A stretch of DNA of 64,000 bases from Candidatus Nanohaloarchaea archaeon (GTDB lineage Archaea; Nanohalarchaeota; Nanosalinia; Nanosalinales; Nanosalinaceae). The translations under genes and the position numbers were made by a program. This document shows, piece after piece, positions 26,157 through 34,074 of this stretch. The DNA is taken from assembly GCA_042218075.1 (NCBI GenBank), contig JBDGRK010000009.1, positions 18,136-82,135 of the forward strand, read 5' to 3'. The notes beneath the pieces were generated by a model, which saw only the letters and a program-made list of their open reading frames with translations, was not told the origin of the DNA and did no database searches. The stretch's first letter is position 1, and each line of letters starts with the position of its first letter.

Positions 26157-27548
26157 ATGTCATCAAATAATATGTCATACCTGCGCAGAGGTATATTGCT
26201 ACTATTTGCCACTTTTTTCTTCTCTACAGTAGTATTTGCCAGTCATCCTCCTGGTTCATGTGGCTACGGCAATCATGACTGTAGCGGTGAAGATACAGAG
26301 CCAGATTTTGTCACCTCGAACCCTGCAGGAGAACTGCTGTTGACAGGTTTCAACAATAAAACCTCAAGATTCAAGGGAGGATTCGACCATGAAGGTATAA
26401 GGGCCACAGGGCAGTGGGATAGCGACTCGAATTTAGAGTTTTTCGCTTCCAAGAGATTAAGTAAAAAAGAGGTACCGAGGCTGATTTACTTCGATTTGAA
26501 AGAATGGAAGAAAGGAAATTATCACAATCTGGGGATCAAAGCCAAACCTGGAGACATCGGGAGTGTTGCAGATATAGATCAGGACCATAAGCTGGAATTA
26601 ACATACTTGAGACCGACACCCGGTGACAAGGCAGAGGGCAACTGGTCCTACCTCAACGTGGATGGAGGCAAATTTGTTTCATCGATACCTGGGAAGCAGT
26701 TTGATACCATACTGCCAACTGTAGACTGGGATAATGATGGCAAACTGGAGTCCGGAGCAGTAGAAATTGACAGCCAGAAGATATATATCCTGAATCAAGA
26801 GGGCTCCATCGATAAATCGATAGGAAGAACAGTAAGCGTGGACCAGGATATAGGAGGTGCTGGAGATATTGATGAAGATGGATTTCCTGAACTTCTTGTA
26901 GACTTTAAGGGCGGTACTGGAACTATAGATTACAGGGGCAGGAAAAATCTACTGTTTGAAAAAGCTACTATTGCAAAGGTAGGAACTGTAGCAGACTTTG
27001 ATGTAGACGGAGAAGAAGAACTGAGCATGAGCCCCACTACATCCTGTGGAAGACAGAATATATGCGGTCAAGACAAGCTTTGGATCACAGATAAAGAAGG
27101 CAAGATAGTAAAAGTCCTGAGCTCATCGAGAGAAGGCGAGATAATAACGAGCCAGGCCTTCGCTAACGTCTATAGACAGGAACCGAATATCAGTTCTGCA
27201 AGGGTAAAACCTGAAAAACTTGAACCCGGTGAACGTATAGACTATTCAATATCCACAGAAGATCTATACGGTATAAAAAAAGCTTACCTCACGATTTTAG
27301 ACGACGGAGAAAGAGTCAAAGATATAAGAAAGGAAGATGTTTCCGGGAAAAAGATTGAATTCAGGAATACCTATAACGCGACTGGAGGAGAAATTTCAGC
27401 CAGAATAACAGTAAAAAACAAGGACTACAGAAACATTTCAGTTCGCCTGAACAGTAGTGTTGAAAAACAATCCGGTTCATTAATAACAGGAAAAGCAATA
27501 TCAGAACCAGGTTGGATTCTCAAATTAATCAAATTCCTTGCCAATTAG
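26157..27548 (+). CDS. Secreted FG-GAP/VCBS-repeat protein with Ig-like C-terminal part
   Basis: Signal peptide; repeated motifs ADIDQDHKLEL, DWDNDGKLE, GDIDEDGFPELL and ADFDVDGEEEL. Confidence 0.75.
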   Translation: MSSNNMSYLRRGILLLFATFFFSTVVFASHPPGSCGYGNHDCSGEDTEPDFVTSNPAGELLLTGFNNKTSRFKGGFDHEGIRATGQWDSDSNLEFFASKRLSKKEVPRLIYFDLKEWKKGNYHNLGIKAKPGDIGSVADIDQDHKLELTYLRPTPGDKAEGNWSYLNVDGGKFVSSIPGKQFDTILPTVDWDNDGKLESGAVEIDSQKIYILNQEGSIDKSIGRTVSVDQDIGGAGDIDEDGFPELLVDFKGGTGTIDYRGRKNLLFEKATIAKVGTVADFDVDGEEELSMSPTTSCGRQNICGQDKLWITDKEGKIVKVLSSSREGEIITSQAFANVYRQEPNISSARVKPEKLEPGERIDYSISTEDLYGIKKAYLTILDDGERVKDIRKEDVSGKKIEFRNTYNATGGEISARITVKNKDYRNISVRLNSSVEKQSGSLITGKAISEPGWILKLIKFLAN

Positions 27549-27644
27549 ACCCGAGAATCAATAATTCAAACCTTGCGTGCCACTCCAAAATCGCAGAAGT
27601 GATTTTGTGCGTTGGCAGAAACTCTTGGATAGAGTTTCGCGAAG

Positions 27645-27778
27645 AGCGTAACGAGTTGGACCGGCTGGGATTTGAGACCCCGAACTTCAGAAAGTTCGAT
27701 CATAAGAATGCATGGGTCCGGGAGACCCATGCCTTGCGTACCAACTCAGCGTAACGAGTTGGACCGGCTGGGATTTGA
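27645..27778. repeat. 31-bp direct repeat of the tRNA-Ala 3' end plus trailer (27645-27675 and 27748-27778)
   Basis: AGCGTAACGAGTTGGACCGGCTGGGATTTGA occurs twice with a 103-bp period. Confidence 0.95.
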
Positions 27779-27889
27779 ACCCAGGGCCTCTTCCAAGTTG
27801 GCGTCGAAGATCGGAGATCTTCTCGAACTCCCTTCACGGAGGAAGGAAGTGATGCCAAGGAAGCGTTCTGCCAGCTGAACTACCGGCCC
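27760..27889 (-). tRNA. tRNA-Ala(GGC) with a 57-nt intron at 37/38 (27796-27852)
   Basis: GGGCCGG acceptor with G3:U70, CTTCC-TTGGCA^T-GGAAG anticodon arm, GGTTCAAATCC T-arm; intron end CCAA-CT pairs with positions 32-35. Confidence 0.93.
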
Positions 27890-27980
27890 GCAACTGCTGA
27901 TGCAGTTGGCAGATCTAGACGGTCGCAGGGCGACCGTCTTCGGTATAGTTTTTCATCTGTCGGAAAAGCCTATATAAGCT

Positions 27981-28715
27981 TCAATCGCTGTACTCCTGCT
28001 TCAGGGTTTCCACTTCTCTGTCCGCGAGCCTTGTCGGTTCGGGAAGTTTGTAGTCTCCATCAAACCTTTCCACTAGATCGACCGCAGTTTCCTCACTCAC
28101 TTTATGGCCTGAAGAAACGTATAGAGGATTGATCTTGCTGTTCGGGGAATCATACTGCCTGGACTGGTAGGCGTAACCTATAATTTTACCATTCGGTATA
28201 TTCTCTACTGAACCATCCGATACCACTTTTCTGCTCGATTCCTCGCTCATCTTTTCCGGTAAATTTACCTTCCCGCACAGAAGATTCTTCGCGATTCCTA
28301 TGCTGGCTTTATCAAATAATACTCCGATATGAACCGCGATACCTGCCTGTCGAAAGTGAATCCTGCCGGAACCGTCCAGCATCAGTAGATCAGGCTCAGC
28401 GGAAAGATTATCCAGAGCATCGATTATTGCCTCGCCTTCCCTGAACGCAAGGAGTCCCGGAATGTAGGGAATTTTAAGATCTGCCTCACCGGAAGCTTTC
28501 TCCACTACTTCTCCATCCTGCATCACAACCGCAGAACTCACAGCTTTTCCATTCGTGAAAGCCTGGTCGATACCACAGACCTTCAAATCTTCATCCAGAG
28601 AAAAAATTAAATCATCCTCAAACACGGCCTCTTCAGCTATATCAAGCTGTAGCTGTTTCATCTGGTTATTTTCCATTTCCGGATAAGGCACATATCTCTG
28701 TTTAAATACTTCCAT
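27981..28715 (-). CDS. nfi: Endonuclease V
   Basis: GIDQAF, PYIPGLLAFRE, DGSGRIH, GIAK and LPEPTRLAD motifs. Confidence 0.95.
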   Translation of the reverse strand: MEVFKQRYVPYPEMENNQMKQLQLDIAEEAVFEDDLIFSLDEDLKVCGIDQAFTNGKAVSSAVVMQDGEVVEKASGEADLKIPYIPGLLAFREGEAIIDALDNLSAEPDLLMLDGSGRIHFRQAGIAVHIGVLFDKASIGIAKNLLCGKVNLPEKMSEESSRKVVSDGSVENIPNGKIIGYAYQSRQYDSPNSKINPLYVSSGHKVSEETAVDLVERFDGDYKLPEPTRLADREVETLKQEYSD

Positions 28716-33886: not shown

Positions 33887-34074
33887 TGGTCCACCCGGGA
33901 TTCGAACCCGGGACCGCCGCCTAGCCTAAAACCGCGAGCAGAGCTCGCTACCGGTGAAACCGGTAATTGCGCTGGCTTAGCGTAACAAGCCTAGGCAACA
34001 CGCAGGCCTCTCGGCAAGAATTTCTGCGTGAGGTCCGTATAAGGACGGTGCTCTAACCCCTGAGCTAGTGGACC
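33887..34074 (-). tRNA. tRNA-Ile(UAU) with a 115-nt intron at 37/38 (33923-34037)
   Basis: GGTCCAC/GTGGACC-A acceptor, CCGTC-CTTATA^A-GGCGG anticodon arm, GGTTCGAATCC T-arm; BHB formed by CTTA:TAGG helix with bulges TA^C and CT^A. Confidence 0.9.

Follow-up and report, generated by a model that had tools for sequence, protein, structure and literature searches.

The stretch analysed here, 64,000 nucleotides (nt) long and called the window below, comes from a salt-lake Candidatus Nanohaloarchaea archaeon (assembly GCA_042218075.1, contig JBDGRK010000009.1) and contains a tRNA-Ala(GGC) gene whose leader, anticodon loop and trailer are crowded with hairpins. The explanation preferred for this locus, to which a probability of about 0.6 can be given, is that small non-autonomous insertions have accumulated in it and are tolerated because RNA processing removes them. 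On the basis of sequence comparison, these insertions are assigned to at least three families, each made of short non-coding repeats rich in hairpins. The families designated PH (for paired hairpin), P and leader repeats occupy gene starts across related genomes as well, and no description of them was found in the literature covered. The insertion of PH exactly at the start codons of elongation factors, ribosomal proteins and Spt4, in a manner that points to translational re-initiation, represents a new niche for a repeat, in a 1-Mb genome that has hardly any spare DNA.

The source assembly (G000, with contigs designated C) amounts to 1.10 Mb in 40 contigs and is 92% complete. It was compared with 70 genomes of the order (designated G), 49 of which belong to the family; the phylum-wide set consists of the same 70 genomes. 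The source EF-1alpha is 83-88% identical to Nanohaloarchaea records, for example those of SG9 and Candidatus Nanosalina, and most tRNA genes of the source genome carry long introns of 12-226 nt according to aragorn.

Modules gained around an ordinary tRNA gene

The intergenic region under study (27549-27980, 432 nt) separates an open reading frame (ORF) of 463 aa from the endonuclease V gene and contains a single tRNA, at 27760-27889 on the minus strand. This tRNA is recognized by the Rfam model RF00005 (cmscan, 54.9 bits), which places 59 inserted nt in the anticodon loop, and by aragorn, once introns are allowed, as tRNA-Ala(ggc) i(38,57), that is with a 57-nt intron after position 37. Default ARAGORN detected no tRNA anywhere in the window. 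The G3.U70 pair can be read from the exons and is kept in 8/8 aligned tRNA-Ala genes, and the TATA box of the window is homologous to TTATTTAGG, located 5' of the orthologous tRNA in G008, G020, G014 and G019. The tRNA-Ala(GGC) gene is by all appearances ordinary and functional.

All nine hairpins listed in the preliminary description of the locus fold as reported, with stems of 5-10 base pairs (bp) and z-scores of -2.6 to -7.8, and only 0-11 of 200 shuffled sequences fold equally well. Taken whole, the 432-nt region has z-scores of -6.6 (strand of the tRNA) and -4.4 (opposite strand), and none of 100 shuffles is as stable. Per kb, tRNA loci contain 4.08 hairpins of at least 7 Watson-Crick bp, ORFs 0.36 and the remaining non-ORF DNA 1.01. 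The description of these hairpins had to be revised at three points. The first hairpin of the intron is longer than stated (9 bp, 27826-27852), the hairpin at 27741-27762, initially set apart as a ninth one, forms a single three-hairpin unit, the P element, together with the pair at 27681-27732, and the four pairs do not constitute one family.

The succession of endonuclease V and tRNA-Ala(GGC) is a synteny observed in seven other genomes of the family. In total, 14 tRNA-Ala(GGC) genes from 13 related genomes were compared, 7 of them at this syntenic locus. The intron is absent in 11/14 and the leader hairpin pair in 13/14, and neither P nor PH is present in the visible trailers of the 14 genes. 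The TATA box, which lies 80 nt from +1 in the window, is found at about 32-38 nt in most relatives (32 nt in G008, similarly short in G020, G014 and G019), in agreement with the initial remark that the leader pair pushes it away from the gene. Among the syntenic loci, G008 possesses a homologous 69-nt intron with neither leader nor trailer module, and the gene is intron-less with bare flanks in G020, G005, G014, G019 and G023; that of G043 is intron-less and has a leader hairpin pair and a trailer module which are both unlike those of the source. The non-syntenic genes contain introns in G011 and G033 and none in G016 and G040, and those of the same genus (two in G001, one in G003) are all intron-less and bare. 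Since none of the 14 genes displays the full set, the modules of this locus are additions rather than ancestral. Orthologues carrying all modules unchanged were not found, which supports the repeated accretion proposed in the preliminary description.

A dispersed family of paired hairpins

One of these modules, the 59-nt block of the trailer, is a member of the PH family. In the source genome, this family is characterized by stems that begin with GAAA and end with UUUC, often paired in the frame CGAAA..UUUCUG - 2-9 nt - CAGAAA..UUUCG. PH modules are non-coding and measure 53-59 nt; their ends, CGAAA...TTTCG around TTTCTG...CAGAAA, constitute terminal inverted repeats, and both strands read alike. 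The strict PH pattern is present in 36/70 genomes of the order and 32/49 of the family, and a control with the reversed pattern produced 1 match in total. An alignment of 20 modules, one from the source EF-1alpha gene and 19 from 17 other genomes, contains 15 predicted pairs, 6 of which show compensatory changes, and the ends of the stems are invariant. The covariance model built from this alignment, R1, includes only the EF-1alpha module from the source genome and no tRNA-associated source copy. It nevertheless matches the window at 27579-27646 on the minus strand with 35.4 bits (E 8.7e-8), and with 27.8 bits on the plus strand, and it detects 24 distinct loci at E <= 5.3e-4 in the 1.1 Mb of the source genome. 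The block (fold z -4.9) thus belongs to a dispersed paired-hairpin repeat, variable in its stems and conserved in structure, as had been anticipated. At E <= 10, R1 matches neither the leader pair, nor the intron pair, nor the other trailer hairpins. These hairpins therefore belong to other families, and the idea of a single family of about 55-60 nt behind all four pairs has to be abandoned. In viral contigs, among 80 listed of 119 stretches with the PH pattern, one had the two-strand signature and none matched R1 (E <= 0.001); these stretches were regarded as chance matches.

Most PH modules recovered elsewhere are located at the beginning of protein genes. The full pattern is present in 19 of 20 sites retrieved from other genomes, and 14 of these 19, as well as two in the source, have the arrangement ATG-NN-module-N-(A/G)TG followed by the real ORF. 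In the source EF-1alpha gene, a 55-nt PH is inserted between the ATG that follows the Shine-Dalgarno sequence and the ORF (C10:84807-84868), with an ATG at both ends, and 0/20 informative relatives carry one. The source EF-2 gene contains a PH at the same kind of place (C10:79113-79177), again with a duplicated ATG, and shares it with G001 of the same genus. Both create upstream frames of 15-16 codons that end with a TGA located 10 nt before the real start. In all 16 start-codon cases the stop of the upstream frame falls in an interval from 10 nt ahead of the real start to 13 nt past it, with TGA in 15 and TAA in one, and seven of these stops overlap the start as (A/G)TGA. The flanking duplication at protein genes consists of ATG plus 0-3 nt, and the next base matches in 11/16 (by eye). 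The ten ORFs tested 3' of a PH all show a Pfam match from their N-terminus and encode housekeeping or information-processing proteins: two translational GTPases, a class II tRNA synthetase, Spt4, an RNase PH domain protein and five ribosomal proteins (S4, S2, L16/L10e, S24e and L15e). Because the upstream frame stops near the real start in 16/16, termination followed by re-initiation is a plausible reason for the tolerance of an insert at a start codon. Removal of these modules by splicing was also considered, and no bulge-helix-bulge motif could be drawn for them.

At the 5' ends of tRNA genes, PH is flanked by a duplication of 7-8 nt. A PH-like insert of tRNA-Ser (C10:~87725) lies within a 7-nt duplication, GCCGGAG, and the paralogous tRNA-Ser on C20 is devoid of it; the tRNA-Pro genes of G062 and G013 carry a PH with an 8-nt duplication. 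No such duplication borders the block of the window. Several introns are present in both tRNA-Ser genes (C10:87700-88400 and C20:12600-13150; their anticodons were read as GGA and UGA), which are missed or garbled by aragorn; behind each of them comes a series of modules, every one ending with a copy of the tRNA 3' end.

Duplicated tRNA ends in the trailer

The P element, about 84 nt long and made of three hairpins, stands twice in tandem in the trailer, and the tRNA 3' end precedes each copy. This arrangement contains an exact direct repeat of 31 nt (27645-27675 = 27748-27778; 2 matches vs 0 in 100 shuffles), composed of 19 nt of tRNA 3' end and 12 nt of trailer. The 72 nt between the repeats (27676-27747) are non-coding and represent the rest of the first P copy. 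Neither Rfam nor aragorn calls a second tRNA at the duplicated 3' end. An 80-nt copy of P, 98.75% identical, is found 3' of tRNA-Ala(CGC) (C15:64824-64903), bounded by two tRNA-Ala 3' fragments, and copies of 76-81% identity accompany other tRNAs in G005, G013, G008 and G009. In G005, P follows tRNA-Gly(UCC) and is itself trailed by a degenerate copy of the 3' end of this very tRNA-Gly. The duplicated end therefore derives from the target and not from the P element.

Compared with the first copy, the second P copy is truncated, and PH interrupts the loop of its first hairpin. The clean insertion initially described is thereby confirmed. Another PH is lodged in a hairpin as well, that of the tRNA-Gly(UCC) leader. 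The composite formed by the split P and PH also stands at the head of two introns, where it covers the initial ~85 nt: that of tRNA-Ala(CGC) (C15:65176-65259, 85%) and that of tRNA-Thr(CGU) (C36:129182-129252, 85%). The same composite, with the P start GUUACGCU, is found directly after the stop codon of EF-1alpha (C10:86150-86225).

Two known RNA classes were considered for the P element and the duplicated end. P has no match in Rfam at E <= 10. A box C/D RNA is delimited by a C box, RUGAUGA, and a D box, CUGA, at its ends, with guides of about 12 nt; the window copy reads UUAUGAU and its paralogues CUGAUGA, with the next CUGA or CAGA 9 nt away and inside a hairpin, and this candidate was rejected. 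A split or trans-spliced tRNA was rejected for the 3' fragment: its homology begins only in the T-loop, and all three tRNA-Ala isoacceptors (GGC, CGC and UGC, the last one mislabelled by aragorn) are present as whole genes. A pseudoknot in the loop of a P hairpin fits only the introns of tRNA-Arg(GCG) and tRNA-Lys(UUU), not the window copy. Two related arrangements were noted. The tRNA-Ile(UAU) gene of the window (33887-34074, minus strand) has a 115-nt intron with a P-like start, GCUUGUUACGCUAAGCCAGCGCAA. A third small element of about 50-65 nt combines GGAUUUGAUA, antisense to the T-loop, with the hairpin called K below (C23:110016-110085, C15:64927-64975); it follows tRNA-Trp, tRNA-Ala(CGC) and the tRNA-Ala of G033, G031, G040 and G043, and is followed by a duplicate of the tRNA from T-loop to 3' end.

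Leader module and intron

Relative to its orthologues, the leader contains an insertion of about 48-50 nt which folds with -27.3 kcal/mol (z -6.4). On the plus strand, a hairpin CAACTGC..GCAGTTG comes first and a GC-rich one last, with GCAGATCT between them. This strand is identical at 23/26 positions to the start of the source tRNA-Gly(UCC) intron (C7:2022-2047), and two of the differences, located in a stem, are compensatory; the leader module is thus inverted with respect to its intron homologue. The motif was detected in 11/70 genomes from four families, where it abuts either the 5' end of a tRNA, in the same antisense orientation, or a 5' splice site, and its hairpin always faces the boundary of the mature RNA.

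The intron has a different history. It comprises a first hairpin (27826-27852), the K hairpin GAGAAGAUC-UCC-GAUCUUCGAC (27803-27824) and a GCCAAC strand pairing with the anticodon loop. Six genomes contain homologous introns, in 7 further tRNA-Ala genes (GGC and CGC), which makes 8 genes from seven genomes and three families when the source is included. In their common layout, the first hairpin varies and shows compensatory changes, UCGAG..CGAC flanks a K hairpin, and the 3' strand pairs with the anticodon loop. The helix between exon and intron covaries with the anticodon (column 36/142, GC:4 CG:4 in the 8 genes), with UUGGC/GCCAA here and UUCGC/GCGGA in the CGC isoacceptors. In the minimum free energy fold, a 3-nt bulge (CUU) is located at the 3' site, and a 5-bp helix with a three-way junction at the 5' site; the canonical bulge-helix-bulge motif has a 3-nt bulge on either side of a 4-bp helix. 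Since the intron layout is common to tRNA-Ala genes of three families of the order, the intron is an old family, patchily kept, and not a recently acquired module as first supposed.

Further tRNA introns of the source genome contain the K hairpin too. A K hairpin with the loop UUU, GAGAAGAUC-UUU-GAUCUUCGAC, was also noticed about 35 nt 5' of the 16S rRNA, atop a GGGAUA/UAUCCC helix (C10:114084-114106). A K-turn was considered for this hairpin, and no C-stem or 3' GA could be fitted by inspection.

Two further proposals of the preliminary description survive in part. The recurrence of GTTGGC at 27611, 27797 and 27905 is real (about 0.035 expected per 300 nt, from a background of ~130 per strand in 1.1 Mb), and the common anticodon-pairing role attributed to it is not: the copy at 27797 is the anticodon-pairing strand of the intron, that of the leader belongs to the conserved leader hairpin, and that of the PH block is not kept in its closest paralogues. 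As for intron-derived modules reinserted around the gene, introns and flanks do share modules, and sharing alone indicates no direction.

The features of the locus and of its immediate neighbourhood are collected in Table 1.

Table 1. Features of the tRNA-Ala(GGC) locus and adjacent genes (window positions)
Feature	Position	Strand	Basis or remark
463-aa ORF	26157-27548	+	weak FG-GAP match only
P element copy 2, truncated, split by PH	27571-27656	-	parts 27645-27656 ACUCGUUACGCU and 27571-27585 GAGUGGCACGCAAGG
PH module, 59 nt	27586-27644	either	CGAAAcucu..agagUUUCUG - spacer - CAAAAUCac..gcGAUUUUG
Duplicated tRNA 3' end, T-loop to discriminator	27657-27675	-	19 nt exact, without 5' partner
P element copy 1, three hairpins	27676-27759	-	fold
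Hairpins of P copy 1	27741-27762; 27710-27732; 27681-27698		first one shares the terminal CCA of the tRNA
tRNA-Ala(GGC) exon 2, positions 38-73	27760-27795	-	RF00005 and aragorn; CCA unencoded
Intron at 37/38, 57 nt	27796-27852	-	Rfam, aragorn, fold
tRNA-Ala(GGC) exon 1, positions 1-37	27853-27889	-	RF00005 and aragorn
Leader module	27890-27940	-	GC-rich hairpin 27917-27939, AGAUCUG, hairpin 27891-27908 abutting +1
TATA box of tRNA-Ala promoter, RNA sense CTTATATAGG	27971-27978	-	read from sequence; 80 nt from +1
Endonuclease V gene	27981-28715	-	PF04493, E 4.5e-52

Origin and persistence of the modules

The following scenario can be proposed for the locus. PH, a unit of 59 nt with two hairpins, GAAA/UUUC stems and a pseudo-palindromic frame, is a dispersed repeat that would have been inserted in the second P copy. 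P, of about 84 nt, would insert at the tRNA 3' end and duplicate the last ~19-23 nt of the tRNA. The leader would be a two-hairpin module copied, in inverted orientation, from a sequence of the kind found at the start of the tRNA-Gly(UCC) intron, and the intron an older relative combining a variable hairpin with a conserved K hairpin next to the anticodon-pairing strand. The occurrence of modules in both orientations and their association with duplications of 3-8 nt or 19-23 nt suggest that this spread took place at the DNA level. At tRNA genes the modules would persist because leader, intron and trailer are presumably all cut from the pre-tRNA; at protein genes, because the short upstream frame brought by the insert stops at or just before the real start and would allow re-initiation.

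A broader extension of this scenario is possible, although it must be regarded as doubtful. PH, P and the leader-type modules might form a new class of archaeal micro-elements that home to boundaries defined in RNA (start codon, tRNA +1, tRNA T-loop or 3' end, splice sites, hairpin loops), are moved by a host enzyme, are made harmless by processing or re-initiation, and supply the raw material of the long tRNA introns of Nanohaloarchaea. The gain and growth of archaeal introns would, in that event, have been caught in the act.

The search for a mobilising enzyme reveals the main weakness of a mobile-element interpretation, namely that no such gene was found. Y1_Tnp (PF01797), TnpB-type (PF07282) and DDE_Tnp_1 (PF01609) domains have no match in the 92%-complete source assembly. 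Y1_Tnp is present in 4/70 genomes and a reverse transcriptase in 7/70, as against 36/70 for the PH pattern. Seven single-contig genomes contain PH (G005, G010, G017, G020, G021, G023 and G062); G005, G010, G017 and G020 have neither Y1 nor reverse transcriptase, and G021, G023 and G062 have no Y1, a reverse transcriptase being present in G023 and G062. Y1/HUH transposase and reverse transcriptase genes are, on this count, too rare to explain the repeats, and the analogy with HUH and IS200/IS605 substrates, put forward in the preliminary description, is not upheld. No transposase-like ORF that would indicate a related autonomous insertion sequence (IS) was noticed by eye between neighbouring PH copies, where no family search was made. 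The source reverse transcriptase is encoded on C29 (7.9 kb, 42% GC); it measures 389 aa, and its best NCBIfam match, of the retron St85 type, is below the cut-off. This reverse transcriptase is accompanied by an AAA ATPase and by a 136-nt repeat present four times (80-94% identity), and the system may be diversity-generating or retron-like; no link between it and the hairpin modules was found.

Several other observations also weigh against mobile insertions. Three features look selected rather than selfish: the GAAA/UUUC stem ends are invariant, the K hairpin is sense-oriented beside the 3' splice site in every tRNA intron seen (by eye), and some genes have a module in more than one genus (S4: G054 and G052; L16/L10e: the source and G043). 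The lengths of the duplications vary (3-8 nt, 19-23 nt), unlike those left by a single transposase, and tandem duplication is another possible source of the 103-nt period seen in the trailer. Finally, the two other DNA runs examined showed no variant with an empty site.

Part of this evidence would be accommodated if the hairpins were selected cis-acting RNA signals, recognized by a processing or regulatory factor of tRNA, rRNA and translation-gene transcripts and copied because they are useful; an endonuclease cutting 3' of a hairpin and an L7Ae-like protein are candidates for this factor. Such an origin is judged unlikely, although not negligible, and its main support is precisely that no mobilising gene or transposase partner was found. 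It would also agree with the invariant stem ends and the compensatory changes inside the stems, with the K hairpin located ahead of the 16S rRNA, with the position of the hairpins against functional boundaries (tRNA +1, 3' splice site, start codons), with the information-processing nature of the 10/10 tested carriers, and with the presence of some modules on the same gene across genera. In addition, RF00373, the archaeal RNase P RNA, gave no match in the 92%-complete source assembly; this RNA may be divergent, interrupted or unassembled, and an unusual 5' processing is conceivable. RNase P proteins have nevertheless been reported for Nanohaloarchaeota, according to the portion of PMC4919917 available. 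Selected signals are moreover difficult to reconcile with the patchy distribution of the modules at orthologous genes (EF-1alpha 1/21 including the source, tRNA-Ala(GGC) modules in 1-3 of 14), with a leader module opposite in orientation to its intron homologue, and with the PH of the window, whose position inside a truncated second P in a trailer makes a function hard to imagine. Nor could a K-turn geometry be fitted by inspection, the arrangement needed for it being absent from the 3' strand.

The duplicated tRNA 3' ends could alternatively be the attachment-site (att) scars of integrase-encoding elements, later reduced by deletion to about 80 nt between attL and attR. A direct repeat of a tRNA 3' end is the classic mark of a tyrosine recombinase, and 19 nt of the 31-nt repeat are tRNA. 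The source genome contains 4 Phage_integrase matches, two of them beside tRNA genes: the tyrosine recombinase genes located just 3' of tRNA-Asn (C13:15284-15784) and tRNA-Pro(UGG) (C37:3650-4234) are likely parts of integrated elements. A published model, furthermore, connects the integration of mobile elements in Caldiarchaeum with tRNA fragments and the gain of introns (PMC3293823). This origin is nonetheless quite improbable. The same ~80-nt P lies between the repeats at tRNA-Ala(GGC), at tRNA-Ala(CGC) and at the tRNA-Gly(UCC) of another genus, each time with the 3' end of the tRNA concerned; one attP could not yield several tRNA-specific ends, and deletions that occurred independently would not each end with an identical remnant of 80 nt. 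There is no integrase between the 31-nt repeats, and the leader, the intron and the PH block would be left unexplained.

A further alternative, in which a 103-nt unit was duplicated locally in tandem or by slippage and is accompanied by chance or GC-driven hairpins or by an assembly artefact, can be set aside as very improbable: the repeat period and the breaking of the contigs from two DNA runs at the 31-nt repeat would fit it, but every module has homologues elsewhere in the source and in other genomes, the hairpins surpass their shuffled counterparts, the depth of the inter-repeat unit (10.3) equals that of its flanks (11.7 and 11.9), and the junction contigs of the second run match with 0 differences. 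The locus therefore shows no sign of mis-assembly, an explanation that had been kept in reserve from the beginning.

Comparison with known systems

Repetitive extragenic palindromic (REP) sequences and the mosaic elements (BIME) associated with RAYT transposases, like the substrates of IS200/IS605, are extragenic palindromic hairpins, often paired, that are recognized as single strands. The modules described here resemble them by their paired palindromic hairpins and by the idea of single-strand recognition. They differ in the absence of Y1/HUH from the source and its scarcity among relatives, and in their location, which is not restricted to intergenic DNA but includes start codons and segments that are transcribed and processed.

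T4 gene 60 contains a gap of 50 nt flanked by matching take-off and landing codons. The take-off codon is GGA, as given in the excerpt available. Mobile coding-gap inserts of this type, bypassed in translation, are described in the part of bioRxiv 10.1101/2022.08.31.505936 that could be consulted, and in-frame Rickettsia palindromic elements within protein genes in the corresponding part of PMC10969869. Like these, PH is a short structured insert, putatively mobile, that is tolerated at protein genes, the matching codons being here ATG and ATG or GTG. Unlike the T4 gene 60 type, it is inserted at the start codon; and since its frame stops at or near the real start in 16/16, ordinary termination and re-initiation would suffice, without any bypassing.

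[quoted passage not shown] As MITEs are characterized in the available sections of this review, the present modules share with them a short, non-coding, multicopy and structured nature, inverted repeats, flanking duplications and a non-autonomous status. They depart from MITEs by their length of 53-59 nt, by the lack of any related transposase-bearing IS found, by duplications whose length does not appear to be fixed and by targets located at gene boundaries. The text of the review, so far as accessible, mentions neither 'start codon' nor 'tRNA'.

In Thermoproteales, very similar introns occur in tRNAs of different identity (Fujishima et al. 2010, as summarised in the accessible part of PMC4090602). 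The composite of P and PH in the tRNA-Ala(CGC) and tRNA-Thr(CGU) introns, as well as the K hairpins of many introns, recalls these transposed introns, and a spread at the DNA level is inferred in both cases. Unlike the Thermoproteales introns, the modules are also found in leaders, in trailers, at tRNA ends flanked by target duplications, after a stop codon and at start codons, and the lineage is that of Nanohaloarchaea, DPANN. The gain of archaeal tRNA introns has been in question ever since similar introns were seen in unrelated Thermoproteales tRNAs. As the same modules occur here in introns, leaders and trailers and at tRNA ends bordered by duplications, and empty orthologous sites exist, this gain becomes directly testable.

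The model proposed for Caldiarchaeum subterraneum involves a 1.8-kb element encoding a recombinase, tRNA fragments next to an intact tRNA, and the gain of an intron (PMC3293823, from the same accessible text). In both organisms tRNA fragments adjoin an intact tRNA gene; the inserts described here, unlike that element, measure 50-85 nt and have no coding capacity. No published account of such repeats in Nanohaloarchaea was found in the literature on tRNA introns, hairpin or palindromic repeats and MITEs that was covered. The tRNAs of Nanohaloarchaea SG9 were predicted in PMC5829648, according to the part of the article available.

Additional observations

Standard tRNA finders and start-codon calls fail on such genomes, with direct consequences for annotation. 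In the source, aragorn miscalls C34:1638-1854, which is tRNA-Ala(UGC), and C15:38625-38791, which reads Val(GAC). With Rfam, at E <= 10 for the locus and E <= 1 for 12 other tRNA loci, only tRNA and 16S rRNA were matched; below-threshold matches to a ribosomal-protein leader and to mascRNA were taken as chance. Two tandem, near-duplicate tRNA-like genes with a common acceptor stem and inserts in the D-arm region are located at C10:90055-90371, where the anticodon calls of aragorn look unreliable. Lastly, an array-like repeat at C14:46380-46620 is composed of three tandem units of about 62-68 nt, each with a short hairpin of the GAAGAU..AUCUUC type.

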